Positions 2,504-42,469 of a stretch of DNA of 64,000 bases are shown here, piece by piece. A program made the translations under genes and the position numbers. Positions within the stretch are counted from its first letter, which is position 1. Each line of letters opens with the position of its first letter. Origin of the DNA: Christensenellaceae bacterium. GTDB taxonomy: Bacteria; Bacillota; Clostridia; Christensenellales; SZUA-584. The notes beneath the pieces were generated by a model. It was not told the origin of the DNA. It saw only the letters and a list, made by a program, of their open reading frames with translations, and searched no databases. The stretch is from positions 12,964-76,963 of the forward strand of contig CAXXTQ010000002.1 of assembly GCA_963665005.2 (NCBI GenBank). The letters are read 5' to 3'.

Positions 2504-2637
2504 TAAATCAGTTCCAAATCTCACTTAAATTATATATCTGTCGTATTTTTAAACAATGACCTGGTTTTAATAATAAGAGGTCTATTATAAGGAATACAGC
2601 ATTTTTCATGTGTTGTTATTTTCAAGAGAGGCAAATT

Positions 2638-4242: not shown

Positions 4243-4253
4243 TGGAGATTCTT

Positions 4254-16024: not shown

Positions 16025-16192
16025 AATAACCTCTTATGTTAATTTTTTTCAGCCGCACATGATTATATGCCTTTATTACCTATAATACAAGGTGTTTTAT
16101 AAGAAATGCATCCAAAATTTTTATATCCAGGCAGTTGATTGATAAGGCACATAAATAAAATGAAGAGCTGCGAGCCTCTCGTCATTCACTTT

Positions 16193-20352: not shown

Positions 20353-20517
20353 AGGCGCCTCCGAATTTCCTTGAAATGCTATCGAAAATGGTGTCGATTC
20401 TTGCTGCCGCAAATTTCTAATTAATTGTATCATGCGCCCTGTGTGTTTTCAATGTAACCATAAAAATAGGATGCGCCTTACTAAGACACATCCTGAAAAT
20501 GCGTTTGTTATAAAAAA

Positions 20518-21735: not shown

Positions 21736-21767
21736 GCAGTATCCTTCTCCTTCGTATAAAATCTTAT

Positions 21768-22616: not shown

Positions 22617-22705
22617 AACCTACACTCACCAGCTTTCCCCATTAAAAAAAACATATGTTAGCCTTATTTTCTGTCTATTATACTACAGCACATAAGGCAG
22701 CGGCG

Positions 22706-23374: not shown

Positions 23375-23580
23375 TTATCTCGCCTCGCTAAAAAATTTTA
23401 TTACTATATTTATATTTTGAGCCTTTGCAATTAATGACGCGGTTTTAAGGCAGATATAAAATCGCCGTTAAAAAAGAGAATATTAATAAATTGAGTTTGC
23501 ATTTTACAGAGCTGATTGATAAAATGAGAGTTAATCACAAAGTTACAAGTAATTCAATATTCGATAAAGGGCGGCAGAAA

Positions 23581-24483: not shown

Positions 24484-24511
24484 TGATCATTATTTTGAGA
24501 CGGGAGCTTTT

Positions 24512-26068: not shown

Positions 26069-26894
26069 CAATACGCTGCTTAATAAGATAATAAAAAGAG
26101 CGCTCGAAGAAGATTTGAATACAGGCGATATAACAACAATGAGCACCGTGCCAAAAGAAACAAATATCAGCGGAAATTTTATCGCCAAGACAGATGGTAT
26201 TCTTTGCGGAATAGATATCGCAAAATCGGTTTTTGCGTACTTAGACCCGCAGGTTAAATTAGACTGCTTTTTCAAAGACGGCGATACTGTAAAAAAAGGC
26301 GATGTCATAGCCAAAATTAAAGGGCGGGCAATATCTGTGCTCTCGGGCGAAAGGCTCGCGCTTAACCTTATGCAGCGTCTTTCGGGAATAGCCACCAAAA
26401 CAAGACAGGCGGCAGATAAGGTTGCTAATTTTGATGTAAGAATCCTTGACACGAGAAAGACAACGCCGGGGCTGCGCATGCTCGAAAAATACGCAGTGCG
26501 AACGGGCGGCGGATATAACCACCGCTTTACGCTCTCTGACGGCGTGCTCATTAAAGACAACCATATAAAAGCGGCGGGCGGTATAGGCAAGGCCGTTTCG
26601 GCGGCAAGAGATTTTGTGCCGCACACTTTAAAGATTGAGGTAGAAGTCGAGACGATTGAGCAGGTTAAGCAGGCGCTTGCTGCCCGCGCGGATATCATAA
26701 TGCTCGATAACATGAGCAATGATATGATGAGCCAGGCGGTTGCATTAATAGACAAAAAAGCATTAGTTGAAGCGTCGGGAAACATGGACGGAAAAGACCT
26801 TCGCGAAGTTGCCGAGACCGGCGTCGATTTTATATCGATAGGCGCGCTTACTAATTCGGTTAACCCACTGGATATAAGTTTAAAATTTGATTAA
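26061..26894 (+). CDS. nadC: Nicotinate-nucleotide pyrophosphorylase (carboxylating)
   Basis: ALEEDL..GDITT, TRKTTPGLR and MLDNM. Start ATG 26061 overlaps the nadB stop. Confidence 0.9.
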   Translation: MIDNTLLNKIIKRALEEDLNTGDITTMSTVPKETNISGNFIAKTDGILCGIDIAKSVFAYLDPQVKLDCFFKDGDTVKKGDVIAKIKGRAISVLSGERLALNLMQRLSGIATKTRQAADKVANFDVRILDTRKTTPGLRMLEKYAVRTGGGYNHRFTLSDGVLIKDNHIKAAGGIGKAVSAARDFVPHTLKIEVEVETIEQVKQALAARADIIMLDNMSNDMMSQAVALIDKKALVEASGNMDGKDLREVAETGVDFISIGALTNSVNPLDISLKFD

Positions 26895-27343: not shown

Positions 27344-28879
27344 TTAGCTCTCCCCCATATCCTGCAGCCTCTCAAAGAAACCATGAAGCTCTACCATATA
27401 CTTAGAGTAAAGCTCGATATGCTTAGCATATTTCTCTTTCATTTCCGGCTTTGGATCATAAGCCTTCTCTTCTTTGACAAACCGTTTCGCCGTCTCTTTT
27501 ATATCCTTGAACACGCCTATCGCATTGCCCGCTAGTATCGCCGCTCCCCACATAGCAACATCCTCGCGGTTCAGCGTCTTGTACCTCTTCCCCTGTGCGT
27601 CAGCGCACATCTGTGTCCAGACAGGCGATTTCGCACCGCCGCCTATTATCTTTATGTTATCAATATTGTACTCAGGATAAAGCCTCTCGATGCTTCTTAA
27701 GCATAATGTAAAATCGTAGGTAAAGCTTTCGAGCAACGCTCGGTAAAAATGTTCTTTCTTATGGCTCCAGTCATGCCCCATCCACAATCCTCGCAAAGCT
27801 CCGTCAAGCGGCATCGAGCTCCCGCCTAAAAGCCCCAGCGCCATAAGCCCGTCGCACCCTATCGGCAACGCATCTACCTTCTTCTCTATCTCGGCAAACA
27901 TCTCTTTTGTAGAAACGCCTTCTTGTCTTACAAAAGTATTCATGAACCAGTCAAGCGTTATTCCCGAACCGGCAACGAAGTGTACCGCGTAAAACTCACC
28001 GGGTACAGCCGATGGAACGACATCAAGCCGCCTCTCCTTTAGATCCGGCCTGTATTGCTCCACACACGTACTGATCATACCATACGAAGACGCTTCAAAA
28101 ATCGTCTCTCCGGGCGTCACAATAGCGGCCCCTAGCGCACCAGCAGCTTTATCGCCCGCCCCGGAAACAAGCGGAACGCCTTCCTTCAACCCCATTACAT
28201 CAGCCATTTTCCCGGAAAGACGGCCGCATATGTAGTTTGACCTCACTATTTTTGGCAGATACTTTTTTTCAAGTCCTATGGCGTCACATATCTTGTCAGA
28301 CCATTGGTCGTTTTGTACATCCGCAAGTCCCGTCCATTCTGTATACGACCTGTCTATTACCGCTTCTTCTATCGGCACATTCCCAAGCCTGCCGATAACA
28401 TATCCGCTAATCATCAGATACTTGGCGATTTTTTTGCTTTCGTCGGGAAACTCATTTTTGAACCATTCATATTTTGGAGCCATCTGAGGAAAATTAGTAC
28501 CCGCAATCCCTAGGAAGTCATCCTTGAGTTCCCCCATCTGCCGCTCCGCATACGGCATATACCGGCTGTCAAGCGAGCAAGACCAAGTTGTTATATCATT
28601 CCAGTCCTTGTCTACCCCCATGAATCCGGACATCTGCCCGGTAAAAGCGATAGCCTCTATGTTTTTAGCACGGTCTCCAAGCGCTTGCGATATCTTTTTT
28701 ACGCATTCAACTACCGATTCAAAAAGCTCCTCGCCTTTCTGTATAAACACTCCCGGGCTTGGCCGGTAATCTTTTACAGGCTCATTTGCAATCGCCACAC
28801 AATTACTTGACGTATCATATACTCCCGCCTTTATGAAGCTCGTCCCAAGGTCAACCGCCAGCAGTAATACTTCTTGCAT
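27344..28879 (-). CDS. FGGY-family carbohydrate kinase (xylulokinase-like)
   Basis: 511 aa. N-terminal LAVDLGTSFIKAG and C-terminal GGGAKSPVW motifs. Confidence 0.85.
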   Translation of the reverse strand: MQEVLLLAVDLGTSFIKAGVYDTSSNCVAIANEPVKDYRPSPGVFIQKGEELFESVVECVKKISQALGDRAKNIEAIAFTGQMSGFMGVDKDWNDITTWSCSLDSRYMPYAERQMGELKDDFLGIAGTNFPQMAPKYEWFKNEFPDESKKIAKYLMISGYVIGRLGNVPIEEAVIDRSYTEWTGLADVQNDQWSDKICDAIGLEKKYLPKIVRSNYICGRLSGKMADVMGLKEGVPLVSGAGDKAAGALGAAIVTPGETIFEASSYGMISTCVEQYRPDLKERRLDVVPSAVPGEFYAVHFVAGSGITLDWFMNTFVRQEGVSTKEMFAEIEKKVDALPIGCDGLMALGLLGGSSMPLDGALRGLWMGHDWSHKKEHFYRALLESFTYDFTLCLRSIERLYPEYNIDNIKIIGGGAKSPVWTQMCADAQGKRYKTLNREDVAMWGAAILAGNAIGVFKDIKETAKRFVKEEKAYDPKPEMKEKYAKHIELYSKYMVELHGFFERLQDMGES

Positions 28880-29034
28880 TTTCCCTTTTCCTCCTCAATA
28901 ATCTCTCTGTTAAAACAATTTGAGAGCAAAAGACAATCTTATTGCAGCTTGTCAAATGCCCTCAAATCACCCCTTCACTCTACTAAAAATCAGAGGTATT
29001 AGCATCTATATATTTTTTGTTCGCACCTTTTTAC

Positions 29035-29808
29035 TCATACTCCCGTATCAGTCTTTTCCTGATTCGGCTGTCCGTTCCAAGCCGACAAGCCTCCGTCCAC
29101 GGGAATGTTCACTCCGCATAGATGTGTAGCCTGATCGGACGCGAGATATACGATCACGTTTGCGCACCACTCCGGCTCGCACAACGCCCTTGCGGGCATA
29201 TTCTTGCGGAAACTCTCCAAAACCGCTCTAGATGCGCCCGTTAAAAACATTGGCGTCTTGACCGCCGAAGGCGATATTATGTTAACACGCACGCCCTGCA
29301 TTGAGTAATCCATGGCTACTGCCCTCGACATCGCTATAACGGCGCCTTTTGTCGCGCAGTAAAGCGACATGTTATAATCTCCGCCCATACCAGATACTGA
29401 TGCAACATTAACTATTGCGCCCTTCTTCTTGGCGAGCATCTGGGGCCCGAACGCCTTCATGGTATGGAATGTACCGCGTACATTTACATCAAACTGGAAA
29501 TCATAGTCCTCTTCCGGCGCATCCTCAATCTGCCCAACTCGGAACACACCCGCACAGTTTGCCAACACATCCGCTCCGCCTGCATCGTTAACCATCTTTG
29601 CAAGAGCCTCTACCTGTTCCCATTTGCCTACATCCGCAGCCTTACAGAAAACATTACCCGGATAATCCTTTTCGAACTCGCCGCATACGCTCTGAAGCTG
29701 ATCCGCTTTCCAATCCGTCATAAAAACTTTATCACCAAGCTTCAAGAAAGCTTCTACCGTTGACTTGCCAACTCCTGATGCAGCCCCTGTAACTACTACA
29801 TTTCTCAT
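29035..29808 (-). CDS. Short-chain dehydrogenase/reductase
   Basis: TGAASGVGKS cofactor motif and YCATKGAV catalytic YxxxK. Confidence 0.9.
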   Translation of the reverse strand: MRNVVVTGAASGVGKSTVEAFLKLGDKVFMTDWKADQLQSVCGEFEKDYPGNVFCKAADVGKWEQVEALAKMVNDAGGADVLANCAGVFRVGQIEDAPEEDYDFQFDVNVRGTFHTMKAFGPQMLAKKKGAIVNVASVSGMGGDYNMSLYCATKGAVIAMSRAVAMDYSMQGVRVNIISPSAVKTPMFLTGASRAVLESFRKNMPARALCEPEWCANVIVYLASDQATHLCGVNIPVDGGLSAWNGQPNQEKTDTGV

Positions 29809-29820
29809 TTTATTACCTCC

Positions 29821-30219
29821 TTAAAGCGCCTGGCAGAGTTCTATGTGCTCGTTATCCGGCCCACGGAAAAACACCCACTTGGTGCCATTCGGGAACATAT
29901 CCGCACAGAACATCTGATCTTCCGTCTCAAACTTAATTCCTTTTGCCTCCAGCTCTTTACGGATTTCTTCTATATCATCCACCGCGTAAGCAACATGATC
30001 TGTCATGCCATCTCCCGGATTGGAACCGATCTTCCTCTGCACCAATTCCAAACATACGCTCCCCTTCTTTACAAATGCACACGTAAACGTATTCCCGTCT
30101 GCATCAAAAGAACATTGCTCTATGCACTCAAGTCCTAATATATCATTATAAAACTTCTTAGATTTCTCCACATCGTCCACAAATATACCGATGTGCCCTA
30201 ATCCAGTTACTTGTGCCAT
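29821..30219 (-). CDS. VOC/glyoxalase-family protein
   Basis: 132 aa with GLGHIGIFVDD and HVAYAV metal-ligand contexts. Confidence 0.75.
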   Translation of the reverse strand: MAQVTGLGHIGIFVDDVEKSKKFYNDILGLECIEQCSFDADGNTFTCAFVKKGSVCLELVQRKIGSNPGDGMTDHVAYAVDDIEEIRKELEAKGIKFETEDQMFCADMFPNGTKWVFFRGPDNEHIELCQAL

Positions 30220-30230
30220 ATCTTTTCTCC

Positions 30231-31247
30231 TTAATTCTTAATCAACACTTTTATACAATTCGAAGAATTATTCATCACGAATTCAAATGCTTCTTTTACT
30301 TTATCTAATGGGAATTCCTGTGTTAACAACAAATCTAAATTTATTTTCTTTTTTTCAACCATTTTAGCCGCTTCTCTAAAATCTTCCCATGTATATTCAA
30401 GTGCACCCCGAATCGCTATCTCTCTATCTTCTACCCGGAACATATCCACCTTCGGAGTCATTCCATAAACCCCCATTGCGATAACTTCTCCACCACGATC
30501 TGTATGTTTTACACATGTTGAGAGGCTCTTTTCGTTTCCAACGCACTCAAACGTGTATCTGGTATAATTCTTTCCTGTCTCTTTAACCAATGTTTCTTCA
30601 ACAGACTCTTTTAAAATATTTATGGGTATTAATCCCAGCTCTTCTGCTATCTTTAATCTGCTATCTATAAGGTCGGAAATAAAAACTTTTTTTGCGCCCT
30701 TGTTTTTTGCAGAAACCGCTGTCAAAAGGCCGATTGTTCCCGCTCCTGATACCAACACATTTTCACTTCTAAGCTCTTTAATCATATTCGCACCGTGGAC
30801 ACCAACTGCCAGCGGTTCAATCATCGCAGCATGACGCAAATCAGTGTTATCATCTAATACAATTGCATTATCAGCATCAACAATAAAATAATCAGCCATC
30901 CCTCCCATATAGAACGTCTGTTCAGGACATATTGCCACTAAACCTTTTTTACAGGTCCAGCATTGCCCGCAACTTCTTACCGGTTGTACTGTAACTTTTT
31001 TGCCGATTTCTAAACCTTTCACACCAGAACCTATGTCGTCTACGATTCCTGAAAACTCATGCCCCAATTCAACCGGATATTTACCTTCCATCAGCGGATG
31101 CTCGCCTTTGAATATATGAATATCCGAACCACATATCCCGCAATAAGCCACTTTAATTCTGACTTGTCCCGATCCGGCCTTAGGCATTTCCATTTCTCTA
31201 ATATTCAAATTTTTTATATCTTCACAATACACTTGTTTCATATTCAT
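30231..31247 (-). CDS. Zinc-dependent polyol/alcohol dehydrogenase (sorbitol dehydrogenase-like MDR)
   Basis: CGICGSD, GHEFSG, structural-Zn Cys cluster CGQCWTCKKG, and GAGTIG Rossmann motif. Confidence 0.85.
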   Translation of the reverse strand: MNMKQVYCEDIKNLNIREMEMPKAGSGQVRIKVAYCGICGSDIHIFKGEHPLMEGKYPVELGHEFSGIVDDIGSGVKGLEIGKKVTVQPVRSCGQCWTCKKGLVAICPEQTFYMGGMADYFIVDADNAIVLDDNTDLRHAAMIEPLAVGVHGANMIKELRSENVLVSGAGTIGLLTAVSAKNKGAKKVFISDLIDSRLKIAEELGLIPINILKESVEETLVKETGKNYTRYTFECVGNEKSLSTCVKHTDRGGEVIAMGVYGMTPKVDMFRVEDREIAIRGALEYTWEDFREAAKMVEKKKINLDLLLTQEFPLDKVKEAFEFVMNNSSNCIKVLIKN

Positions 31248-31272
31248 TTATTCTCCATATTTTTCAATTTAT

Positions 31273-32118
31273 CTATACAAGCTTTTTCTCTGCCTCTTCA
31301 AGCACCTTGAGCCCGTCTATCCAATACTTATCCGTTTGGAAACGAGAACCGTCACATCTTTCCATATAATCGAAAAAGAACGCAACGGGCGGCAGCAATT
31401 CAAGCGCAAGATATCCATCATATCCGATATCTTTTAGCGTTTGCAATATTTTTACGAAATCATGTGACCCCGTTCCCGGAGCCTCTCTTCCGCTGTCCGA
31501 AAGATGAATATGCACAAGATAATCTTTTTGATCGATAAGCGCCTGATACATATCCTTTTCTTCAAATTGCATATGGAAAAAGTCCCCGTGCACCCCTATG
31601 TTAGGCATGTCTACTGCTTTTACCCACCTAACCGCTTCTGCAAGCGTATTAATAAGATGATTGTCGTATCTATTCCAAGCTTCAAGGCAAAGTGTGACAT
31701 CATGCTTTTGAGCATATTCCGTAGAGATACGCATACTTTCAACACCATACTTAAACTCGTCCTCAGGATCCGCAAGCGGTACCGGTTTTAAAAATTCGCC
31801 GGGATATACGATAGCCATGTGGCAGTCCTGCTCAGAAGCAAAATCTATTGTTTTTTTCATATAATCGATTGATTTTTTACGAACTCTTGTTATTGGGCTG
31901 GAGAGGCAGGTTCCTTCTAGAAACACGCTGCACATCGAACCCATCTTCAATCCTTCGCCTTCAAGGACTTCTTTTATCTCTTTGGATTTTTCATAGTAAT
32001 CATTGAATCCGGGTATTTCTACATATTTAAACCCGCATCTGGCTGCCCTTTTGAAAGATTTAGCTATATCCTCCACTGGGCGGTTTATCATTGAATTGTA
32101 TTCATATTTGAATTGCAT
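31273..32118 (-). CDS. Xylose-isomerase-like TIM-barrel protein (ketose 3-epimerase-like)
   Basis: Metal-ligand contexts LEAWNRYD, VHGDFFHM and LALELLP resemble the tagatose/psicose 3-epimerase family. Confidence 0.65.
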   Translation of the reverse strand: MQFKYEYNSMINRPVEDIAKSFKRAARCGFKYVEIPGFNDYYEKSKEIKEVLEGEGLKMGSMCSVFLEGTCLSSPITRVRKKSIDYMKKTIDFASEQDCHMAIVYPGEFLKPVPLADPEDEFKYGVESMRISTEYAQKHDVTLCLEAWNRYDNHLINTLAEAVRWVKAVDMPNIGVHGDFFHMQFEEKDMYQALIDQKDYLVHIHLSDSGREAPGTGSHDFVKILQTLKDIGYDGYLALELLPPVAFFFDYMERCDGSRFQTDKYWIDGLKVLEEAEKKLV

Positions 32119-32195
32119 TTATTATACCTCCTTCAATAGGTTAACTTATTATTTTTCATGGTCTTCATTGCATAAATTATTGATACTGCCTATTG

Positions 32196-33152
32196 CTATT
32201 TTTCTTTAGCCATACGTAATTTCTGTAAACAATCAAAGCTTACCGCCAACAACAAAACAACACCCTGTACAACAATTTGCACATACTCGCTTACATTTGC
32301 CAGAGCCATACCATTTGCAAGCACGCCCATTATAAACACACCAATCAAGCAACCAAACACTGAGGCCGATCCACCTGAAATACTTGTTCCTCCCAGAACA
32401 CATGCTATAATAACATCGAACTCAAACCCTCCTCCTGTATTCGGCGATCCTGTGTTGATCCTTGAAAGGGTCACTATACCTGCTATACATGCAAATACAC
32501 TGCTCAACACATATACGCTCGTCTTCATGACGTCAACATTTATACCAGAAAGTTTTGCAGCTTCCTCGTTTCCTCCTATGGCAACATAATATCTGCCATA
32601 AGTCGTTTTATAAAGCAATAACCATGCCAATACAAAAGTAATCGCAAAGATAATTACAGGTATCGGGATATATGCCAAGTACCCTTGTCCAATTACTTTA
32701 AATTCTGTAGTAAAACCATATATGGGTAACCCGCCGCATATAAGGTAGGCTGCACCTTGAAGTATTTTCATAAAAGCAAGCGTCGCAATAAAGGGCGGTA
32801 TCTTTACCTTCGTAATAAACAAGCCAGTAATCAAGCCCGCTATAATGGCCATGACAATGCATATTAGTATTGCCAGGTACATATTCATACCCATATTAAC
32901 CATCATGTAGGCGCATATGATATTTGTAAATGTAACTTGTGAGCCTACTGATAAATCTATACCTCCCACTAACAATACAAACATCATACCTGCAGCGGCA
33001 ATCCCGACCATTGATACTTGTCTTGCAATATTTAACGTATTGTTAATTGAAAAGAAATTATTTGCAGTAAATGAAAAGAATATAACAAGAGCAATTAACA
33101 CAAATACGATTGCATACTTCCCTAAGAATTTCGCCTTTCCTTCTTTATACAT
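32196..33152 (-). CDS. CUT2 sugar ABC permease (RbsC-like)
   Basis: 318 aa, about 9-10 TM, typical RbsC/branched-chain permease pattern (GGIDLSVGS). Confidence 0.9.
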   Translation of the reverse strand: MYKEGKAKFLGKYAIVFVLIALVIFFSFTANNFFSINNTLNIARQVSMVGIAAAGMMFVLLVGGIDLSVGSQVTFTNIICAYMMVNMGMNMYLAILICIVMAIIAGLITGLFITKVKIPPFIATLAFMKILQGAAYLICGGLPIYGFTTEFKVIGQGYLAYIPIPVIIFAITFVLAWLLLYKTTYGRYYVAIGGNEEAAKLSGINVDVMKTSVYVLSSVFACIAGIVTLSRINTGSPNTGGGFEFDVIIACVLGGTSISGGSASVFGCLIGVFIMGVLANGMALANVSEYVQIVVQGVVLLLAVSFDCLQKLRMAKEK

Positions 33153-33171
33153 TATATACCATTTCCTCCAT

Positions 33172-34665
33172 TCAACTTACCTTTGATGCATAGTGCATTA
33201 TTTTTTCTTGAGAAAACTCTTCTCTTTTTAACTGGGCTCGTATTTTCCGTTCGCACAAAACAAGTATTCGATCAGACATTCCCATTAACTCAGGCATCTC
33301 CGACGAAATCATAATTATTGTTTTACCCTGTTTAACCATCTCATTTATGAGTATGTATATTTCATATTTTGCCCCAACGTCTATACCTCTGGTCGGCTCA
33401 TCCATTATAATTAGATCGGGCTGTGCCGCAAGCCATTTTGCAACAACAACCTTTTGCTGGTTGCCCCCGCTCAGATTTTTCACAAGCTGTTGTATAGACG
33501 GTGCTTTTATTGTAAGTGCATTTTTATATTTATCAATAATTTTTCTTTCTTTACTTCTATTGATCCAGGACAAAAAGGATATCTTACTTAACATAGCAAG
33601 CGTAATATTCTGGGCAATTGACATATGTGCTAATATACCATGCTCTTTACGGTTTTCCGGCACCAACACGATTCCGTGAGCAATCGCATCTTTGGGAGAT
33701 TTAACATGTATTTCCTTCCCCTTCAATTTCAACTTTCCAGATTTTATCTTTGCAGTGCCGAATATTAATTGCGCCATCTCCGTACGCCCAGCACCTACAA
33801 GGCCGCCCAAGCCCAGTATTTCTCCTCGATATAGCTTCATATTTAAGTTTTCAAATCCATTACCTGATACCCCTTCCATTTCCAGCAGTACTTCATCGGT
33901 AATCTGGGGCTCCTCTTTAGGAAATATGTTTTTTATTTCACGTCCTACCATCATTGTAATAAGCGTATCTCTTGTTATCTCGTTTGTATCCATAGTCGTA
34001 ATTAGCTTACCATCCCTCATAACAGAAACTCTGTCAGATACCTCAAATATTTCTTCTAATCGATGTGAGATATATATAATACTGACTCCGGAGGCTTTCA
34101 ATGTTCTTATCAATTTGAATAACGTCTCCACTTCTGCATCTGTCAATGGTGCAGTGGGCTCATCCATTATCAACACTTTTATATCCGTTATTAATACTTT
34201 ACCGATTTCAACTAGCTGTTGATATCCAACGGAAAGATTTTTTATTTGATCGTTTATATCTATCTTTATATCTAACTGATCAAACACCTGCAGGGCACGC
34301 TTTTTCATTTCTTTTTTCTTTAAAAATTTCCCAACCTTTATCTCTCGTCCCAAGAACAGATTTTCCCACACGGTGAGTTCATTTACCAGATTAAATTCCT
34401 GATAGATAACACCAATACCTAATTCTTTCGAGCTATGTGGGTTAAAACCTTTATATTCTTCGCCTTCAATTACTATCGTACCGGAGCTGGGTTTATGTGC
34501 GCCTGCTGCAGTTTTTATCAATGTTGATTTGCCTGCGCCATTCTCACCAACAAGCGCATGCACCTCACCCTTACGAAGTGAAAAGCTCACATCATCTATT
34601 GCCAAAACACCCGGAAACGTTTTAGTAATATTACGAAATTCAAAAAAAGTCTTTTTATTTCCCAC
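33172..34665 (-). CDS. CUT2 sugar ABC ATP-binding protein (RbsA/MglA-like, tandem NBD, intact motifs)
   Basis: GENGAGKST, LSVGYQQ, LIMDEPT, GLVGAGRTE, LSGGNQQK and IIMDEPTRGID. GTG start with GAGGAA RBS. Confidence 0.9.
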   Translation of the reverse strand: MGNKKTFFEFRNITKTFPGVLAIDDVSFSLRKGEVHALVGENGAGKSTLIKTAAGAHKPSSGTIVIEGEEYKGFNPHSSKELGIGVIYQEFNLVNELTVWENLFLGREIKVGKFLKKKEMKKRALQVFDQLDIKIDINDQIKNLSVGYQQLVEIGKVLITDIKVLIMDEPTAPLTDAEVETLFKLIRTLKASGVSIIYISHRLEEIFEVSDRVSVMRDGKLITTMDTNEITRDTLITMMVGREIKNIFPKEEPQITDEVLLEMEGVSGNGFENLNMKLYRGEILGLGGLVGAGRTEMAQLIFGTAKIKSGKLKLKGKEIHVKSPKDAIAHGIVLVPENRKEHGILAHMSIAQNITLAMLSKISFLSWINRSKERKIIDKYKNALTIKAPSIQQLVKNLSGGNQQKVVVAKWLAAQPDLIIMDEPTRGIDVGAKYEIYILINEMVKQGKTIIMISSEMPELMGMSDRILVLCERKIRAQLKREEFSQEKIMHYASKVS

Positions 34666-34750
34666 TTAATTTCCTCTTTCGTTTTTTTTATAATTCTACA
34701 GACACGAACAGCAAATATATTACCGTTCGTGTCTGCACCTATTTATACCT

Positions 34751-35866
34751 TTATTCTAAATAATCTCCAAAATACGCCAGGGCTTCGTAATCAACCGTTA
34801 CTTCAATATCATAATTGAGCTGTTCCATCATTTCAGGTAAGTTATCATAAGTAATTGGAAGTACAGGCATATACAAAACACTTTCATAATCTTCGCCGCG
34901 TACAACCTTCATTGTTTCATCTATCATAGCTTCCGCGTGAAGAGCTCCCCCTCCAAGATTTGCACAGCCACGTATATAACCGCCCATGGCCATTAACGTA
35001 ACCGCTTCCAAGCTACCGTCGATTGTGAAAATACCAAAGTCATCATCAGCATTGGCCGCTACAATCGCCTCGTTTGCGCCAACACCGCCGCCATCACCAA
35101 AAGATAGAATGATGTCCATATCGGGGTAAGCCTGGAGCATGTTTTCAGCTCCATCAAATCCTTCAGTTGCTACCAAAGCGTCTTGCTCTATAACGACCTC
35201 CGCGTTAGGAGCCAGTTCTGCAAGAGCATCTTTCATTCCTTGAACACGCGTTGCGGCTATATCAGGAAATACGCTACTCCCGAATACTCCAACTTCAATT
35301 GTTTCCTTATTTTTTAGTGTTTCATGCTCATTGATCCATGCCGCTGCCATAGTACCACACATCACACCCGCATCATGATCAGGCATAGCATATTTAATAT
35401 CATCGACTAGAGATTCGGTCGTATAAGCACAAAGCGCAATGCCGTTGTCCTTTGCCTTCTGAAGCACGTCTTCACCTGCAGTTGTTGGCGTAATGTATAT
35501 AATGCCGTCATAACCAGCCGTAATGAAATTTTCCATTTGCTCAACAAATTTGCTGGGATCATCATCATAAGAAACGGATGTTACGTTGGCATTATACTTT
35601 TCCTTTGCATATACTTCTGCATGATTAACAAGATCAACCCAAACACTGTTAGTAAGGCCGCTGAATACGATGCCGAGCTGGTACTCCTTAGCAGTCTCGT
35701 CAACGCTATCATCAGGCTCTTCGCCACCATTTTCCGCAGTCTCTGTATCTACCGCTTCATCGGTAGACTGAACTTCGTTAGGTGCACCTGTACAAGCAGC
35801 AAATACAAACGCTAATAATAAAACTAACAGTACAAACGCTATGCTCCTTTTCATCTTCTTCACCAT
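34751..35866 (-). CDS. Sugar ABC substrate-binding lipoprotein (PBP1-like)
   Basis: Signal peptide plus lipobox (VFAAC), an acidic linker, then a binding-protein fold sequence. AGGAGG RBS. Confidence 0.85.
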   Translation of the reverse strand: MVKKMKRSIAFVLLVLLLAFVFAACTGAPNEVQSTDEAVDTETAENGGEEPDDSVDETAKEYQLGIVFSGLTNSVWVDLVNHAEVYAKEKYNANVTSVSYDDDPSKFVEQMENFITAGYDGIIYITPTTAGEDVLQKAKDNGIALCAYTTESLVDDIKYAMPDHDAGVMCGTMAAAWINEHETLKNKETIEVGVFGSSVFPDIAATRVQGMKDALAELAPNAEVVIEQDALVATEGFDGAENMLQAYPDMDIILSFGDGGGVGANEAIVAANADDDFGIFTIDGSLEAVTLMAMGGYIRGCANLGGGALHAEAMIDETMKVVRGEDYESVLYMPVLPITYDNLPEMMEQLNYDIEVTVDYEALAYFGDYLE

Positions 35867-36050
35867 TTTTGTTCCTCCTTTTGTTTTTACAATTTATACA
35901 ATCCACATAGCCGTGTTACATAAGCAAACCACAAAATACGGATTGTCGCTATTGCTCAGCATCATTTATACTAACACTCGCTCAATAAACCGTCTACGCG
36001 ACACTTTCTAGATTTCTCATGCCATTTTCAAGATATTTAATTTTGGTCAC

Positions 36051-36080
36051 TTGCTTTTATTATTTATAAGGGACTATAAT
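36051..36080 (+). promoter_or_regulatory. Candidate sigma-70-type promoter for the RR2-HK2-P2 operon
   Basis: TTGCTT, 18-nt spacer, TATAAT (36075-36080), about 30 nt upstream of the RR2 start. Confidence 0.3.
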
Positions 36081-36111
36081 AAAATAGGGAAAGGGGGATA
36101 AAATTAAATTT

Positions 36112-37725
36112 ATGATTACATCAAAGAAATTGTCAACAATAATCATAGATGACGAACCTAATGTCTGTGACTTAATAAAGCATTTAGGGAATTGGCAGGA
36201 GTTAAATATCGAAGTCATCGGAGAAGCAAATGGTGGTCAACAGGGTCTTGCCTTAATTCGAAAATACAAACCAGATATCGTAATAATTGATATGAGGCTT
36301 CCGGGGATTAGCGGAATTGATATTATTAAAAAATGTTTTACAGAACATATTTCGTCAAAATTTCTAGTTGTTAGTGGCTATAAAAAATTCGAATATGCTC
36401 AACAGGCTCTCACATTAAACGTTTCAGGGTATCTCCTCAAACCTATTAACAAATATGACCTTAATTCTGCCCTTAAAAAAATAATTACAGAGATTCAAAA
36501 TTCTTATGTTGCCAAGAATCATTTGCAAACTCTCTCCTCAACAATCGATATAAAACAAGGATATTTATGGGAGCAGCTATTTTTTGCATTGACCGAACAA
36601 AAAAGGAATAACATTGATATAAATAAACTTAGAAAAACTCTTGGAATTTCCAACGATAATATAAGCTTTGTATTTTTTATCGTTAAAATAGATGCTTTAA
36701 TTGATACATTAGATATAAATTCATTATTAAAACAGATTAATGCTTTATTAAAAAAATACTTTAATGAACAAGCTCCCTTTCCCTTACATATTTTCAAAAC
36801 CGAAAATCGCCTTTTTAGCATTTTATATTATGAATCGGCCAGTCCCTACAACGCCACGTCGATATTTAATAATATCTATCAACTAGTAAATAAAAAAATA
36901 CTTCCAGCCAAAGCAAAAGTAACTATAGGAATTAGTTCGAAAAAAAATAGTTTTTCTGATTTGCCGTCAGCATATCGCGAAGCCACAGCCTGCATAGAAT
37001 TTCGTCGTTATAGTACACAAAATATAATTTTGTATACCCCGGAAATCCCGTTGGTCCCAAAAGAATTTGCTGTTCCTCAAAAATATGAAGACAAAATCAT
37101 AAGAGCTATAGAAATCCAAAGTAAAGAAAAGGCTTTACAAATCTTTAATGATTTTTGGTCAGAATTTTTGCCCACTTTTAAGCCTCGCGGCAGTTTATTC
37201 ATTACAATTAGCGCATTTGTGGAAACATGGTGTTCAATACTTAATAGCTATTCTAAACATACGGATTTTTTTCAAAAAGAAAAATATATGCTTATTACAT
37301 CAATAGATAATGAAATGAACCTCAATAAAATTAAGGATTATGTTTCCATAATGATCAAATCTTCTATTAAACAATATGCTGACTGCCATAAATCATGGGG
37401 GGACCAATATATACGAACAGCTAAAAAATATATTGCAGAAAATTTGGGAAATGGTTTAACATTGGATGAAGTTGCTGAAGCAGTATCTTTAAATCCAATA
37501 TATTTTAGTTCATTATTTAAAACAAAAACCGAAATGAATTTCTCCAGTTATATCCAAAAGCAACGTATAGATATGGCTAAGCAACTACTTCAAAAATCTA
37601 AGTCTCCCATCAAAGTCATTAGTTCTTCCGTCGGTTATCAAGATATCAATTATTTTACAAAACTGTTTAAAAGGTATGTCGGAATTACTCCATCTGCATA
37701 TCGGCGTATGCATTTTCCAATTTAA
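36112..37725 (+). CDS. Response regulator, CheY receiver plus AraC/XylS HTH (YesN-like), RR2
   Basis: IIIDDEP, DIVIIDMRLP and LLKP. C-terminal AraC HTH (LNPIYFSSLFKTKTEMNF, GYQDINYFTKLFKRYVGITPSAYRR). Confidence 0.9.
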   Translation: MITSKKLSTIIIDDEPNVCDLIKHLGNWQELNIEVIGEANGGQQGLALIRKYKPDIVIIDMRLPGISGIDIIKKCFTEHISSKFLVVSGYKKFEYAQQALTLNVSGYLLKPINKYDLNSALKKIITEIQNSYVAKNHLQTLSSTIDIKQGYLWEQLFFALTEQKRNNIDINKLRKTLGISNDNISFVFFIVKIDALIDTLDINSLLKQINALLKKYFNEQAPFPLHIFKTENRLFSILYYESASPYNATSIFNNIYQLVNKKILPAKAKVTIGISSKKNSFSDLPSAYREATACIEFRRYSTQNIILYTPEIPLVPKEFAVPQKYEDKIIRAIEIQSKEKALQIFNDFWSEFLPTFKPRGSLFITISAFVETWCSILNSYSKHTDFFQKEKYMLITSIDNEMNLNKIKDYVSIMIKSSIKQYADCHKSWGDQYIRTAKKYIAENLGNGLTLDEVAEAVSLNPIYFSSLFKTKTEMNFSSYIQKQRIDMAKQLLQKSKSPIKVISSSVGYQDINYFTKLFKRYVGITPSAYRRMHFPI

Positions 37726-37732
37726 ATATGGT

Positions 37733-38776
37733 ATGAATATGAAATTATTAAAAAATAAAAATAATAAAATAAATTTTTTTTCTCATGCTGCTTTTGTACT
37801 ATATTGCCTATTATTTTCTGCGCAGATTTTCTCGCTTTATTTTATTTATCTTGCATATAGAGTATCCTTATTAAGTATTTTGTATTTCTTTTTTATAATT
37901 CTTTGTATGCTATTTTTTATTTTCATTATAATTCGGCCAATATATAAGAACTACAAACGCGGCAAAATTGCTGGCATTGTTGAAAACAATCCTTTTAAAA
38001 TGCTAAATAGCCTTGCTTCAGGTGCGTGGGTGAAAATCATTGAAGAAAACAATAATTTAGTTAAAAAAGACTACTCTAATAAAATACTTCTTAACCAAAT
38101 GAAATTTCAAACATTGCAAAATCAAATAAATCCTCATTTTTTATATAATTCCCTTGATTCTGTCCGTGGACTGGCAATAAAGGCAAAGGACTATTCTACA
38201 GCAGAAATGGTAGAAGCTCTCGCCTCATTTTTCAGATATAACATTGGTAATGAAAATGATATCGTTGAATTGCATCAGGAAATACAAAGTATACGCAACT
38301 ATTTTATTATCCAGAGATATCGTTTCTCAAATCGTTTTAAACTTGAGTGCCATTTTGATCAGAAAGACTCCTCAATTATTCAATATATGATTCCAAAACT
38401 AATAATACAACCGTTAGTAGAAAACGCAATATTTCATGGACTCGAACCCAAAGAAGGCAAAGGTTTCGTCGCCATCAATGTCCGTAAAACTACACACAGA
38501 CTGTATATATCAGTTGCCGACAATGGCGTAGGGATGAGCGACGCAGAATTACACTATCTCAATAAAAAATTGCTTTCAATTAAAAAAACTTCGCAAGGCT
38601 TATCTATTAGCGAAGATATGAAACATAAAAACATTGCTATACCTAATATAAATCAACGCATAAAAAGTATTTTTGGAGAAGATTTTGGTTTGCATATCAG
38701 CAGTACGCTCAATCTTGGTACAGAAATCGAACTCTCTCTCCCATTTCCATCACAGATAAAGGATTACAGCCAGTGA
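37733..38776 (+). CDS. Short LytS/YesM-type histidine kinase without an extracytoplasmic domain, HK2
   Basis: Two adjacent TM helices, a short linker, H-box INPHFLYNSLDSVRG, N-box QPLVENAIFHG and G-box ADNGVGM. The start is ambiguous (ATG 37733 or 37739; the ORF-track start 37676 overlaps RR2). Confidence 0.85.
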   Translation: MNMKLLKNKNNKINFFSHAAFVLYCLLFSAQIFSLYFIYLAYRVSLLSILYFFFIILCMLFFIFIIIRPIYKNYKRGKIAGIVENNPFKMLNSLASGAWVKIIEENNNLVKKDYSNKILLNQMKFQTLQNQINPHFLYNSLDSVRGLAIKAKDYSTAEMVEALASFFRYNIGNENDIVELHQEIQSIRNYFIIQRYRFSNRFKLECHFDQKDSSIIQYMIPKLIIQPLVENAIFHGLEPKEGKGFVAINVRKTTHRLYISVADNGVGMSDAELHYLNKKLLSIKKTSQGLSISEDMKHKNIAIPNINQRIKSIFGEDFGLHISSTLNLGTEIELSLPFPSQIKDYSQ

Positions 38777-40182
38777 TAGACGAATTGCTTAGAATTGAAG
38801 ATTTATACGGCTATTATATTGAGAAAACAATACTTGATCATGTTGCTTTTAGTCTTTTTAATGGCGAAATTTTGTGCCTATTTGGATTGAATAATTCCGG
38901 GAAAAGTACTATTATCCGCATCTTTTCGGGCAAAATACACGGCGTCTGGGAAAAAAGAATATATTATAAAGGTAACCCTATAACAATTGATTCTCCAACC
39001 GAATCAAAAAAACTTGGAATTGCATGTATACAATCTAACTCTTCGCTACTGGATACTTTTACGGTATCAGAAAGCCTTTTTATAATGCCTGAAATTTCTC
39101 CAAAACGCACCTTTATCTCATATAAAAAAATTAATAAAAAGACTGCTCAAATCCTAAAAAAATTTGATCTCGATATAAACCCTACCGACATAGTATGCAA
39201 TCTTAGTCAAGCCAACCGCTTCCTTCTTGAAATTGTTAAAAATATAGTAGATGAAAAAGAAATATTCTTTATTGACTGTCTTCATGTATTCAGGCAAAAA
39301 ACTGATTTTGATAAACTTAGAAAAATTATTATTAGCCTTAGAGAAACTGGTAAAACCATTTTATTTACCAGTAATAATTACCACCAAAACCTTTCCTTTG
39401 CTGATCGTATTTATATATTACGTGATGGTATGATCGTAAAGGAAATGACTGCTTCAAATTTTACTCCAAAGCTCTTAAAGAAATATGCAGCTAAACAGTT
39501 TTATATTCCAACATCGAATAGCAAAGTAGAAAAAGATTCATCTATACTGCTAGACATTAAAAACCTCAATGTTAACAAAAAATCTCATGCGCTTTCTTTT
39601 AAAATCTTTAAAGGTGCAATAACTGCTGTTGCATCACAAAATAAAAATTTGCTGCATGAATTAGCTAACTATTTTATTGACCCATATCCACAGAATATTT
39701 TTGTGAAAATTAATGGTATGAACGTTACACACAAGAAATTCTGCAAATGGCTCAAACGCAATTCCAGCACTATATTAAACCTATCTAAAAGCGTTTGTAG
39801 ATTTTATAACATGAGTGTTTTAGAAAACATTACTGTAAGTGCTAAACCTTCTTTCCCATTCCCTAGATTATGGATTAATAAAAAAGTCAAAAGCTTTATA
39901 GCTACTGACAATAAACATCTTATTGATGTTGTAGAACTACTAGATAAACAAGGAGGTGACTTTGTCGTCTACAATGCATTTCTTCTTATAAAACGACTTA
40001 TATACCGTAAGATACAATTTGTCGTATTCTACTGCCCCGAATTTGGACTTGATCCCTTAAGTATTACTTGGATCTACTCAGTAATTGAAGAACTCTGTAA
40101 AAAAGGTATTGGTGTATTGCTACTTACTGAGAATGGTAATGAGGCGTCCCCTTTTTGTTCCCATACTATTTGGATAGGCTAA
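38773..40182 (+). CDS. Degenerate tandem-NBD ABC ATPase homologue (Walker A kept in NBD1, catalytic residues lost), called P2 here
   Basis: 469 aa. GTG start forms a GTGA overlap with the HK2 stop. NBD1 has Walker A GLNNSGKST intact, but the signature is LSQANRF, Walker B is IFFIDCLH (catalytic Glu is Cys) and the H-loop is TSNNY. NBD2 has no Walker A, and the Walker B region is FYCPEFGLD. Confidence 0.85.
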   Translation: MIDELLRIEDLYGYYIEKTILDHVAFSLFNGEILCLFGLNNSGKSTIIRIFSGKIHGVWEKRIYYKGNPITIDSPTESKKLGIACIQSNSSLLDTFTVSESLFIMPEISPKRTFISYKKINKKTAQILKKFDLDINPTDIVCNLSQANRFLLEIVKNIVDEKEIFFIDCLHVFRQKTDFDKLRKIIISLRETGKTILFTSNNYHQNLSFADRIYILRDGMIVKEMTASNFTPKLLKKYAAKQFYIPTSNSKVEKDSSILLDIKNLNVNKKSHALSFKIFKGAITAVASQNKNLLHELANYFIDPYPQNIFVKINGMNVTHKKFCKWLKRNSSTILNLSKSVCRFYNMSVLENITVSAKPSFPFPRLWINKKVKSFIATDNKHLIDVVELLDKQGGDFVVYNAFLLIKRLIYRKIQFVVFYCPEFGLDPLSITWIYSVIEELCKKGIGVLLLTENGNEASPFCSHTIWIG

Positions 40183-40479
40183 TTCTATTGACCAGTTTTC
40201 AGGAAAAAGGTCGCAAAGTTCAAGAATACCCCCTGTCAGTGTCAAATAAATGGCCTATTGCCAAAACCTTTTTTTATGTCTAAAACAGATTAAATAATGC
40301 ATTGTTCTCATCTATTTGTACTGTGGGAAAGCCATCGCTCCTAAAAAATAAACGTCAATAATCAAAAGAAGTAATAAACCGCAAATACGTTATCCTCACA
40401 AATATTTAAAAACTGAAATGTGTCCAAACGTCCTTTTTTTAAAGTTCACAAATAAGCGAAAACTACGTAACCATCGTGG

Positions 40480-41835
40480 GGCGTGTTGACAAAATGGTCA
40501 ATACAAAACGAAAAGCCTGAGAAAAGTCAGGGTTGGAGGTAATAATATTCATCCGTACCAATCAATTTATGGTTCTGTTCCATATGCTCCGTATAGAGAT
40601 CGTTTGATTTTCCTTATCGTAGAAGTAGCTGTAAAACATTTTTCCCTTAGACCGCAACTTCGGCATTTTGGGGCGCTGCTTCTGTACAAAGCATATATGT
40701 GCTCGCCCTTACGTTCATAATAAGAAAAATGAAGGGTATGCCCTCCTGGACAATGGTATACATTTTTTTCTTTATCGTAGATAAATTCTTCTGCAGGTAA
40801 TTCGTTCTTTCGAAAACCAACATGTTTCTGACTTTCGGGAATATAGAGTGTTATACCCATTTCGCCAAAATCGTGATGTGCTTCCACACAATCATATCCA
40901 CGATCCGCAACCATATTTTGAATGGGCAATTATAATCGATCATGCTGAATTTTTATCCTATCTGTACAACATTCATGATCCAAACGATTTCCGATTGTTA
41001 CATGGATATCAGTAATAATCCCGTGCTTTATGTCGGCGCATTGGTGGCAAAGGTAATGAAATCCTCCCGGCTTCCCCCGCCGCCCTAACATTCCACTATC
41101 AGAATCGATCAGGTTTTGCACTTCTTGCCTTTTTCGTAGCTTAGCTCTTGGTTTTGGTTTTAGCCCACGCTTTTTCTTGCAGGAATACTTCTCTGCTTAC
41201 AATGCTTTAATATGCTCGAGGGAATTCCAGGACGGTCACTATAACTCTCTTTTTATCATCTGTATTAGCTTTTACATGGGTTGCATCCATAGCAATTGAT
41301 TTACCTTCTACTAAACCCGCCTCTATGCAAAGACGTACAATATGTACGAATATATCCTCAAAGATGGTTGTATTTTTAAATCGGCGACATCTGTTTTGTG
41401 AAAAGGTCGAATAATCCGGTAATACGGTCTTCCAGATCTAACCCCAGGTACCATCAATATGCAATATTGACCTGTACTTCCTGTTCAAGCCTCTCTCAGA
41501 ATTGATGCCGTACAAATATCCAGCAGAAGCATCTTTACCAGCACTACGGAATTAATTGATGTCCGTCCATATTTGCTATACATGGGACGCACCACATCAT
41601 ACACAAAATTCATGTCAACAGATGCATCCAGCTTCCTTAAAAAATGATCAGCCGGGGCAAGGCTATCCATTGCTATCATCATAAGCCGTTGTTGCTTGTT
41701 TCGTTCTTCGCTCATCATTGAAATCGCCCGCTTTTATTATACATAAATATTCTGTATTTTTCCCTTTTTGCGGCATTTTTTCATTCCTTATACTACAAAA
41801 GTCATCGGCTTATCCGATGACTTTGTCAACACGCC
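40480..41835 (-). mobile_element. IS5/IS1182-superfamily insertion sequence, internally deleted and non-autonomous
   Basis: 13-bp perfect terminal inverted repeats, GGCGTGTTGACAA (40480-40492) and TTGTCAACACGCC (41823-41835). Flanked by the 8-bp direct repeat CATCGTGG (40472-40479 and 41836-41843), which looks like a target-site duplication. Confidence 0.75.
40567..41718 (-). pseudogene. Disrupted IS5/IS1182-type DDE transposase
   Basis: The N-terminal DUF772-like segment (LAPADHFLRKLD...YSKYGRTSI), the middle part and the ADRGYD...CRSCGLREKC segment lie in at least three different frames. The C-terminal catalytic region is missing. Confidence 0.75.
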
Positions 41836-42136: not shown

Positions 42137-42210
42137 TGGCAGCGGAACTAGGATTCGAACCTAGACACTACGAGTCAGAGTCGCAGGTGCTACCGTTACA
42201 CAATTCCGCT
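42137..42210 (-). tRNA. tRNA-Gln (anticodon CTG)
   Basis: Hand-folded cloverleaf: acceptor AGCGGAA/TTCCGCT, anticodon stem TGCGA/TCGTA, loop CTCTGAC, T-arm CTAGG-TTCGAAT-CCTAG, encoded CCA. Confidence 0.9.
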
Positions 42211-42217
42211 TTATAAA

Positions 42218-42392
42218 TATCCCACAGATGCCGTCCGCCAAAGTTTTAACGCCTGCACACTCGCAGGTGGGTGCTCTGCCAAATGCCTCTGCCCTCCCGT
42301 CTAAGCGGGCCCGGTATCAGCAAGCGGACTCCCGAGCTCCCGAAAACATTTTGTAGGTTTAAAACAAGGGCGTTATCGAACACCGCAGGATA
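42218..42392 (-). ncRNA. ssrS: Structured 175-nt RNA, most consistent with 6S RNA
   Basis: GC-rich segment between two tRNAs. The ends pair over about 10 bp (UAUCCUGCGG with CUGUGGGAUA). GGUGUUCG near the 5-prime end and UUAAAACU...GGCGGACGGCAUCUG near the 3-prime end resemble E. coli 6S as I remember it (GAUGUUCG, UUAAAACU, GGCGGCAUCUC). The size fits 6S. Confidence 0.5.
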
Positions 42393-42469
42393 TGGTGGGG
42401 TTAATTGGGCTCGAACCAACGACCTCTACGATGTCAACGTAGCGCTCTGACCAGCTGAGCTATAACCCC
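42393..42469 (-). tRNA. tRNA-Val (anticodon GAC)
   Basis: Hand-folded cloverleaf: acceptor GGGGTTA/TAACCCC, D-arm GCTC..GAGC, anticodon loop TTGACAT, T-arm GTTGG-TTCGAGC-CCAAT, encoded CCA. Confidence 0.9.

Follow-up and report, generated by a model that had tools for sequence, protein, structure and literature searches.

A degenerate tandem ABC protein encoded with a sensor-less LytS/YesM-family kinase beside a CUT2 sugar transporter operon

INTRODUCTION

In the clostridial three-component sugar sensors XylFII–LytS–YesN and CuaD–CuaS–CuaR, the signal is collected by a transporter-derived but non-transporting substrate-binding protein (SBP) (PMC10384115, PMC3656788, PMC8050422). These SBP-type sensors are the nearest described systems to the locus analysed here, which lies in a 64,000-nucleotide stretch of DNA from a Christensenellaceae bacterium; the whole of that stretch is referred to below as the window. 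In ‘module 2’ of the window (36112–40182), the genes for a response regulator (RR2), a short LytS/YesM-family histidine kinase (HK2) and a tandem ATP-binding cassette (ABC) protein (P2) form a two-component system (TCS) operon that diverges from an operon encoding a CUT2-type sugar importer. As in the described sensors, a LytS/YesM kinase and an AraC-type regulator adjoin the sugar ABC operon to be induced, and a third component is encoded in the TCS operon. In XylFII–LytS–YesN and CuaD–CuaSR that component is a binding protein outside the cytoplasm, received by an external domain of the kinase, whereas in module 2 it is a cytoplasmic ABC protein that appears to be catalytically dead. Module 2 is not of the XylFII type, since it comprises RR2, HK2 and P2 only, its sole SBP gene heads the transporter operon and HK2 has no external domain.

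Kinases that take their signal from a transporter are known from several other systems. In Bce-type modules (BceRS–BceAB and BraSR–BraDE), a sensor-less intramembrane kinase with two transmembrane (TM) helices obtains its signal through an ABC transporter (PMC7438565, PMC7828314). In those modules the permease is FtsX-like and bears a large external loop, BceA is active, the regulator is OmpR-type and the signal is an antimicrobial peptide. In module 2 a dead ATPase accompanies an intact one, the permease belongs to BPD_transp_2, the regulator is AraC-type, the kinase has a PF06580 DHp domain and sugar catabolic genes are present; the module therefore differs from the Bce type in permease, ATPase and regulator. 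The Bce ATPase is catalytically active and its hydrolysis is needed. In PhoR–PhoU–PstSCAB, the kinase has no periplasmic sensor and learns the state of an ABC importer from a cytoplasmic adaptor that contacts the transporter at its ATPase side. By analogy, this last system appears closest in logic to module 2, although PhoU has a helical-bundle structure with no relationship to ABC domains and is co-encoded with the transporter, whereas P2 is an ABC pseudo-enzyme encoded with the kinase. UhpC (with UhpB/UhpA) and yeast Snf3/Rgt2 are transporter homologues with lost or lowered transport that serve as signalling inputs. The transporter DctA acts as a co-sensor with DcuS (PMC4280142). It is the membrane component that has been co-opted in UhpC, Snf3/Rgt2 and DctA; in P2 it would be the energy-coupling nucleotide-binding domain (NBD) component, possibly together with a divergent permease at one related locus. 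Degenerate nucleotide sites are familiar from heterodimeric ABC exporters and CFTR, where a site that keeps Walker A but lacks the catalytic Glu, the H-loop and the signature motif binds ATP stably and does not hydrolyse it (PMC7756269, PMC2860590). The exporters and CFTR remain active in transport or gating, having one site that is still competent, whereas neither site is competent in the proteins described here.

Module 2 is a rare but conserved variant of transporter-coupled two-component signalling. Our search of the full-text literature turned up SBP-type three-component systems, Bce-type modules and degenerate exporter sites, and no account of a short YesM kinase paired with a dead ATPase; coverage was partial, and a prior description is possible. 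It is highly probable that P2 represents a conserved, kinase-coupled dead ATPase that acts as a signalling subunit.

RESULTS

A kinase without a sensor domain

HK2 and RR2 are of the LytS/YesM–YesN type: a kinase with PF06580 and HATPase_c domains adjoins a regulator with a receiver and an AraC-type helix–turn–helix (HTH) domain (Table 1). Hydropathy indicates that HK2 begins with two adjoining TM helices separated by a near-zero external loop, followed by a short linker and the His_kinase and HATPase_c domains. An alignment with seven other short kinases and HK1, the kinase of a second signalling module (module 1) in the window, shows conservation of the H box (NPHFLYN) and of the N and G boxes. 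Pfam detects no sensor or HAMP domain in HK2 even at E ≤ 1, and a HAMP search of the kinases at the same threshold found none in any of them, HK1 included. HK2 aligns only to the C-terminal 249 residues of HK1 (35% identity, E 6e-52, BLASTP) and lacks the ~230-residue extracellular domain that HK1 (591 aa) carries between its two TM helices. This external domain is also missing from the seven other short kinases; it is present in HK1 and in the kinase of L001, a locus related to module 1.

HK2 therefore departs from the canonical YesM architecture of a large extracellular sensor domain and HAMP-like linker, and has the two TM helices and minimal loop of the intramembrane-sensing kinases in Bce-type modules. 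Lacking an extracellular or HAMP domain, it would need an external input; judged from its domain content, HK2 alone has no apparent means of sensing. The truncation of HK2, the feature that makes a co-sensor necessary, was overlooked in the original prediction for this locus.

The mechanically called open reading frame (ORF) of HK2 (37676–38776) runs 50 nt back into RR2. Homologue N-termini indicate that the likely start is the ATG at 37733 or 37739 and not 37676, so that RR2 and HK2 are non-overlapping and 7–13 nt apart. At the other end of HK2, the GTG start of P2 overlaps the kinase stop codon as GTGA, and an AAGGA sequence lies 9 nt upstream of the P2 start; the junction is predicted to couple translation of the two genes. 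Pfam confirms that the three ORFs encode a response regulator, a LytS/YesM kinase and an ABC protein, as originally predicted, and the sequence bears out the GTGA overlap, the position of P2 as last gene of the TCS operon and the divergent SBP gene. The promoters and the RR2 operator presumably lie in the 245-bp spacer that separates RR2 from the SBP gene. Within 35700–40700, promoter-like sites are not commoner than in shuffled sequence, and terminator and repeat scans yielded nothing above shuffled expectation, just short two-copy repeats. The GC content of the TCS genes (2608–6017 and 36112–40182) and P2 is 30–32%, compared with 41% for the window and 38–44% for the neighbouring transporter genes, which could reflect horizontal origin or weaker constraint.

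Degeneration and fold of P2

P2 retains the Walker A motif of NBD1 (GLNNSGKST, conforming to GxxxxGK[ST]), the A-loop aromatic residue, the Walker B Asp (D168) and the D-loop Asp427 of NBD2. The Walker B motif reads D168–C169, the catalytic Glu having given way to Cys. Also lost are the H-loop His, the two signature motifs, the Walker A and the Walker B acidic pair (Asp-Glu) of NBD2, and the C-terminal tail. A functional ATPase has the catalytic Glu, an H-loop His and LSGGQ in at least one composite site, and P2 has this combination in neither. On its motifs, P2 is predicted to be a tandem ABC protein that descends from CUT2 ATPases and has no catalytic activity. The persistence of a 469-codon open frame in 32% GC DNA points to selection (our own estimate of chance persistence is ~1e-16).

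PF00005 matches P2 over one significant stretch only (52.9 bits, cut-off 25), and alignments to the XylG, RbsA and AlsA models span both halves of the protein, in keeping with a tandem architecture. P2 scores 115–123 bits with the NCBIfam XylG/RbsA models, far below their cut-offs of 699–745, and is therefore not a named CUT2 equivalog. The canonical ATPase of the divergent operon scores 535–571 bits with the XylG/AraG/RbsA-like models; its 571 bits likewise fall below the equivalog cut-off, but are ~4.6-fold above P2.

An AlphaFold2 model of P2, built from a 44-row alignment (pLDDT 87.5, pTM 0.79), adopts a tandem NBD fold. Its best full-length Foldseek matches are OppD and DppD of M. tuberculosis, which are fused tandem importer ATPases seated under their permeases, and the BceABS cryo-electron microscopy complex (8g4c) is also among the hits. 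No full-length CUT2 ATPase was among the strong hits (E ≤ 1e-30) in a sequence search of solved PDB structures. The helices that follow the Q-loop, marked by the motif (S/T)VxEN, are retained in both halves of P2 (N101 and N352).

A conserved position behind short kinases

The comparison loci carry a P2-family or sister-group protein, both defined below. Eight loci with readable context were counted: the window, L002, L003, L004, L005, L006/L007, L012/L013 and L014 (Table 1). The same order, a response regulator gene, a short kinase gene (314–369 aa) and a degenerate ATPase gene directly after the kinase, is found in all eight independent loci. This tabulation of neighbours, which had been proposed as a check on the original prediction, shows that P2-family and sister-group genes are not randomly placed with respect to short YesM-type kinases. 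Kinase and P genes overlap by ATGA or GTGA in 6/8 loci, as seen for example in L003, L004, L005, L006 and L007; the exceptions are an 11-nt overlap in L002 and a 2-nt gap in L012. Six canonical ATPase genes from these loci and from L001 all lie within transporter operons, none of them after a kinase gene. CUT2 sugar-transporter genes adjoin the cassette wherever flanks could be read (seven of seven). The loci span 34–60% GC, indicating that the module is distributed over distant genomes.

The segment 4962–11827 of L006 matches window positions 29035–35866 in gene content (Zn-dependent dehydrogenase, SBP, ATPase, permease, AP_endonuc_2, VOC and SDR genes), and the P protein of L006 is just 24% identical to P2. 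The transporter ATPases, at 38–51% identity, evolve far more slowly than the P, RR and HK proteins. At L002, a very divergent BPD_transp_2 permease gene (3537–4541) overlaps the stop codon of the P gene, and the contig ends soon after. This permease scores 63.9 bits compared with 150 for the window permease, to which it is 21% identical, and from its sequence it may be a dedicated ‘pseudo-permease’ or pseudo-transporter for the sensor.

Family and phylogeny of P2

An exhaustive HMMER (phmmer) search of 1.84 billion cluster representatives with P2 as query identified the relatives P0123, P0124, P0125, P0126, P0129 and P0131, which are 461–476 aa long, 24–36% identical and clearly outscore canonical ATPases. 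Word-indexed searches with P2, and then with a seven-sequence profile, gave almost only canonical ATPases, so that P2 seemed to have no family; the exhaustive search showed otherwise. Contig scans of genomes and metagenomes with an alignment of P2, P0123 and P0124 returned only canonical CUT2, Opp or Dpp ATPases, and Pfam and NCBIfam scans of P2 and P1, the P protein of module 1, revealed no model specific for these degenerate ATPases. Absence of the AAA_21 Pfam label was tried as a proxy for degenerate P-loops and abandoned, all such hits being canonical or partial.

The seven P2-family sequences share 26 invariant columns, including G38, G43, K44, W59, D168–C169, N352, P422 and D427. All seven have the Glu-to-Cys change at Walker B1. 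The H-loop 1 position is occupied by N, D, S, K or R, signature 1 is degenerate and signature 2 is absent, as are the Walker A and the Walker B acidic pair of NBD2. The invariant W59, located in a G-x-W-x-K motif after the Walker A helix (window 38947–38949), is specific to the family and is found neither in canonical ATPases nor in the sister group; the same holds for the Cys of the invariant D168–C169 pair (window 39274–39279). Our working definition of the P2 family, drawn from seven sequences in six contexts and not curated, is a length of 461–476 aa, a retained Walker A1, a D-C Walker B1, the G-x-W-x-K motif, a dead NBD2 that keeps the D-loop Asp, and a gene directly after a short PF06580 kinase. 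P2 itself has all of these features. In a sister group (P0136, P0170, P0185, P0197 and P0199; 492–499 aa), a motif resembling Walker A is retained, Walker B reads D-[D/G/N], the H-loop His is absent and NBD2 is again dead.

A neighbour-joining tree (no support values) resolves the degenerate proteins into three separate clades: the monophyletic P2 family, the sister group, likewise monophyletic, and a pair made up of P1 and its orthologue P0025. The first two stand apart from the canonical ATPases of their own loci, which group with ordinary ATPases. This placement indicates that both are old lineages and not recent local duplicates. Three canonical-looking relatives of P2 depart from the consensus at single points: P0127 lacks the C-terminal tail and reads D-Q at Walker B2, the H-loop 1 residue of P0128 is Gln, and signature 2 of P0224 is LDGSNQQK. 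From these features they may be intermediates toward full degeneracy. An N-terminal ‘ELLR’ was considered as a possible synapomorphy uniting the sister group with P1 and P2, and was rejected, as it also occurs in the near-canonical P0127, P0128 and P0224.

Co-variation of P with the signalling proteins

Mantel tests on pairwise distances were made on a small sample (seven loci for P–HK, five for the ATPase and permease comparisons). Distances among P proteins track those of the kinases (r 0.71, p 0.004, seven loci) and of the response regulators (r 0.73), with r between 0.71 and 0.86 over the P–HK and P–RR comparisons, and those of the real ATPases track the permeases (r 0.98). P co-varies with HK and RR and not with ATPase or permease, which indicates that it belongs to the signalling cassette.

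Module 1 and P1

The original prediction described module 2 as a second copy of module 1. The two are not copies of one module, since P1 and P2 fall in different clades and HK1 is full-length whereas HK2 is sensor-less. They are also more diverged than had been estimated by eye: RR1 and RR2 are 29% identical (E 1e-54), where 35–40% had been given, and P1 and P2 are 19% identical (E 7e-17), where the estimate was about 25%. The E-values of the RR, HK and P pairs all lie well outside chance similarity. Each P protein is nearer to the real ATPase than to the other P (P1, 28% identity, E 3e-47; P2, 23%, E 5e-24; all BLASTP). Motif tables agree with the prediction that both are degenerate in their catalytic motifs. 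P1 is the more degenerate: the Walker A glycines and Ser/Thr are gone, with Lys alone left, and its best NCBIfam CUT2 score is 232 bits against a cut-off of 850.

The only orthologue of P1, P0025 (58% identity, 491 aa), has kept the C-terminal tail. Its locus, L001, has a full-length 586-aa kinase and a response regulator divergent from genes for a P1-like protein, an SBP, an ATPase, a permease and catabolic enzymes. The claim that P1 heads a transporter operon holds, with the SBP gene ~70 nt downstream and the same order in the syntenic L001. Three features that were thought to unite P1 and P2 carry little further. Both proteins are indeed exactly 469 aa long, a coincidence given that P2 relatives measure 461–476 aa and the P1 orthologue 491 aa; ‘VLLLT’ occurs in both and is not a family signature; and the missing C-terminal ~25 residues apply to P2, with the tail kept in the P1 orthologue.

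Other features of the window

The catabolic genes at 27344–32118 (−) belong to the operon of the SBP, ATPase and permease genes. Their products (FGGY kinase, SDR, Zn-dependent dehydrogenase and sugar isomerase/epimerase) point to a polyol or ketose as the probable substrate. Broken transposase-like ORFs (40567–41718, −; weak DDE_Tnp_1_6 match, 23.6 bits) lie between P2 and a tRNA/6S RNA locus, and the sugar island may have a rearrangement boundary at this insertion sequence remnant. The 6S RNA gene (42215–42394, −; Rfam RF00013, 78.9 bits), ~2 kb downstream of P2, is flanked by tRNA-Gln(CTG) (42137–42210) and tRNA-Val(GAC) (42393–42469, −). Housekeeping genes at 14216–26894 (TypA/BipA, SbcCD, an aminotransferase, shikimate dehydrogenase, a LysM protein and NadA/NadB/NadC) place both sugar modules in an ordinary bacterial chromosome.

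Table 1. Annotated features of the window, and composition of the cassettes at comparison loci
Feature	Position	Strand	Description
RR2	36112–37725	+	537 aa, YesN-type response regulator; Pfam Response_reg 72.5 bits, HTH_18/AraC 72.7 bits
HK2	37733–38776	+	~347 aa, LytS/YesM-family histidine kinase; PF06580 88 bits, PF02518 (HATPase_c) 33 bits
P2	38773–40182	+	469 aa, tandem ABC protein; ABC_tran (PF00005) 52.9 bits
GTGA junction	38773–38776	+	P2 GTG start overlapping HK2 TGA stop; read from sequence
Divergent intergenic region, SBP gene/RR2	35867–36111	none	245 bp; sequence
CUT2 substrate-binding lipoprotein (SBP)	34751–35866	−	Peripla_BP_4 98.6 bits; heads divergent transporter/catabolic operon
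Canonical CUT2 tandem ATPase	33172–34665	−	497 aa; ABC_tran 187.7 bits, two stretches; every motif intact
CUT2 permease (BPD_transp_2)	32196–33152	−	PF02653 150 bits; proposed docking partner of the ATPase and, putatively, of P2
AP_endonuc_2 sugar isomerase/epimerase	31273–32118	−	Pfam/NCBIfam
Zn-dependent dehydrogenase	30231–31247	−	Pfam/NCBIfam
VOC/glyoxalase-like protein	29821–30219	−	Pfam/NCBIfam
SDR	29035–29808	−	Pfam/NCBIfam
FGGY sugar kinase	27344–28879	−	Pfam/NCBIfam
P1	967–2376	−	469 aa, tandem ABC, different clade from P2; heads module-1 transporter operon
RR1	2608–4242	+	Response regulator
HK1	4242–6017	+	591 aa, full-length kinase; ~230-aa extracellular domain between two TM helices
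SBP lipoprotein gene (module 1)	1–896	−	Translation; cut by window start; ~70 nt downstream of P1
L002			RR, HK 341 aa, P 476 aa, permease next
L003			RR 536 aa, HK 340 aa, P 461 aa; divergent isomerase–ATPase–permease operon
L004			RR, HK 339 aa, P 474 aa, SBP gene next
L005			RR 537 aa, HK 344 aa, P 475 aa; divergent SBP–ATPase–permease; layout as window
L006/L007			RR, HK 314 aa, P 462 aa
L006 beyond P			Dehydrogenase, SBP, ATPase, permease, AP_endonuc_2, VOC, SDR
L012/L013 (sister group)			RR, HK 369 aa, P 493 aa; in L012 then SBP, ATPase, permease
L014 (sister group)			RR, HK 335 aa, P 499 aa

DISCUSSION

We propose that P2 is a non-hydrolysing input subunit of HK2 that docks on the CUT2 permease. 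P2 would be made stoichiometrically with HK2 through the start/stop overlap and would bind it, and its NBD1 would bind ATP without hydrolysis. Like its ancestor, P2 would dock from the cytoplasm onto the dimer of the neighbouring CUT2 permease, and from there it could report to HK2 whether the sugar-loaded binding protein engages the permease. Phosphorylated RR2 would then switch on the divergent operon for the SBP, ATPase, permease and catabolic enzymes. As a full chain, this reading of the sequences seems to us evenly poised between right and wrong, and its two halves differ in strength. The original prediction cast P2 as a bridge between kinase and transporter. Its kinase half stands, and the link is strong, on the grounds of synteny and of co-variation with HK and RR. 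The transporter half is plausible, if weakly supported; it derives from the ancestry of P and its full tandem fold, the kept post-Q-loop helices, the CUT2 adjacency and the permease coupling at L002.

Several observations weigh against this proposal. The co-variation of P extends to HK and RR and not to the permease: P shows no co-variation with the neighbouring real ATPase (r −0.02) or the permease (r 0.07) in Mantel tests on five loci only. The absence of P–permease co-variation argues against a tightly co-evolved interface between the two and is just as compatible with the kinase as sole partner. The proximity of CUT2 genes is what any YesMN regulon would be expected to show. The Gln of the NBD1 Q-loop is not conserved across the P2 family. 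The family is rare, with about 7 + 5 clusters at 50% identity (P2 family and sister group) among the 1.84 billion representatives, all comparison loci are metagenomic contigs and thus a thin sample, and the neighbour-joining tree carries no support values.

P2 could also be a purely cytoplasmic kinase subunit that makes no contact with the transporter, in which the nucleotide site or the cleft between the halves senses ATP/ADP or an intracellular sugar metabolite and modulates kinase/phosphatase activity directly. The co-variation of P with HK and RR, and not with ATPase or permease, agrees with such a subunit, as do the retained Walker A and A-loop aromatic residue and a translational coupling that fixes stoichiometry with the kinase, not with the transporter. 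The cassette also appears to have been shuffled relative to the transporters: the SBPs of L006 and L012 are 50% identical, and their P proteins belong to different groups. We nevertheless judge a cytoplasmic subunit of this kind to be unlikely. It leaves unexplained why a full tandem CUT2-type NBD pair with its helical-subdomain motifs was chosen, why P is coupled to a permease gene at L002 and why P1-type genes head transporter operons; extracellular sugar would moreover be invisible to the system before transport.

P2 could instead act as a competitive brake on transport, occupying the permease in place of the real ATPase, with co-expression from the TCS operon only setting its level. A tandem NBD fold like that of permease-docked ATPases, the lack of catalytic residues and the location of P1-type genes inside transporter operons are what a brake would show. 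We consider this improbable, because it does not account for the strict pairing with sensor-less kinases, for the conserved start/stop junction between kinase and P genes or for the way P co-varies with HK and RR, and because the kinase would still be without an input.

That P2 is a functionless, decaying relic of a duplicated transporter ATPase gene, and module 2 a degraded duplicate of module 1, is barely credible and largely refuted by the family and synteny data: the loss of all catalytic motifs but one Walker A, the lack of a close relative in word-indexed searches and the broken transposase ORFs just downstream would fit such a relic, but P2 has an intact 469-codon ORF in AT-rich DNA, belongs to a conserved family with invariant, specific C169 and W59 across genomes of 34–60% GC, keeps its position and coupling in 8/8 loci, and lies with P1 in different clades, each P nearer to canonical ATPases than to the other.

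The proposal for P2 as an HK2 input subunit docked on the permease can be extended to its relatives. P2-family proteins might turn a CUT2 importer into a transmembrane receptor, in which a dead NBD pair sits on a shared permease or on a dedicated one, as at L002, and docking of the binding protein signals to a bound sensor-less kinase. Such proteins would be the first ABC NBD pseudo-enzymes to serve as a third TCS component, and the arrangement would have arisen more than once, in the P2 family, the sister group and the P1 family. We put this extension forward tentatively, as possible but with the balance somewhat against it.

P-type proteins are now annotated as ‘sugar ABC transporter ATP-binding protein’, a description that should be corrected. 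The invariant Glu-to-Cys change beside a retained Walker A presents a specific biochemical puzzle that is open to simple mutants, and the cassette is a small, portable sugar-sensing unit for engineering in Clostridia-like hosts. Many histidine kinases have no recognizable sensor domain, and the module offers a concrete and testable route by which a signal could enter them: a conserved, compact unit pairs such a kinase with a pseudo-enzyme derived from the transporter that it regulates. If the proposal is true, it would add a member at the level of the NBD to the transporter-derived sensors represented by UhpC, Snf3/Rgt2, BceAB and PhoU–Pst.

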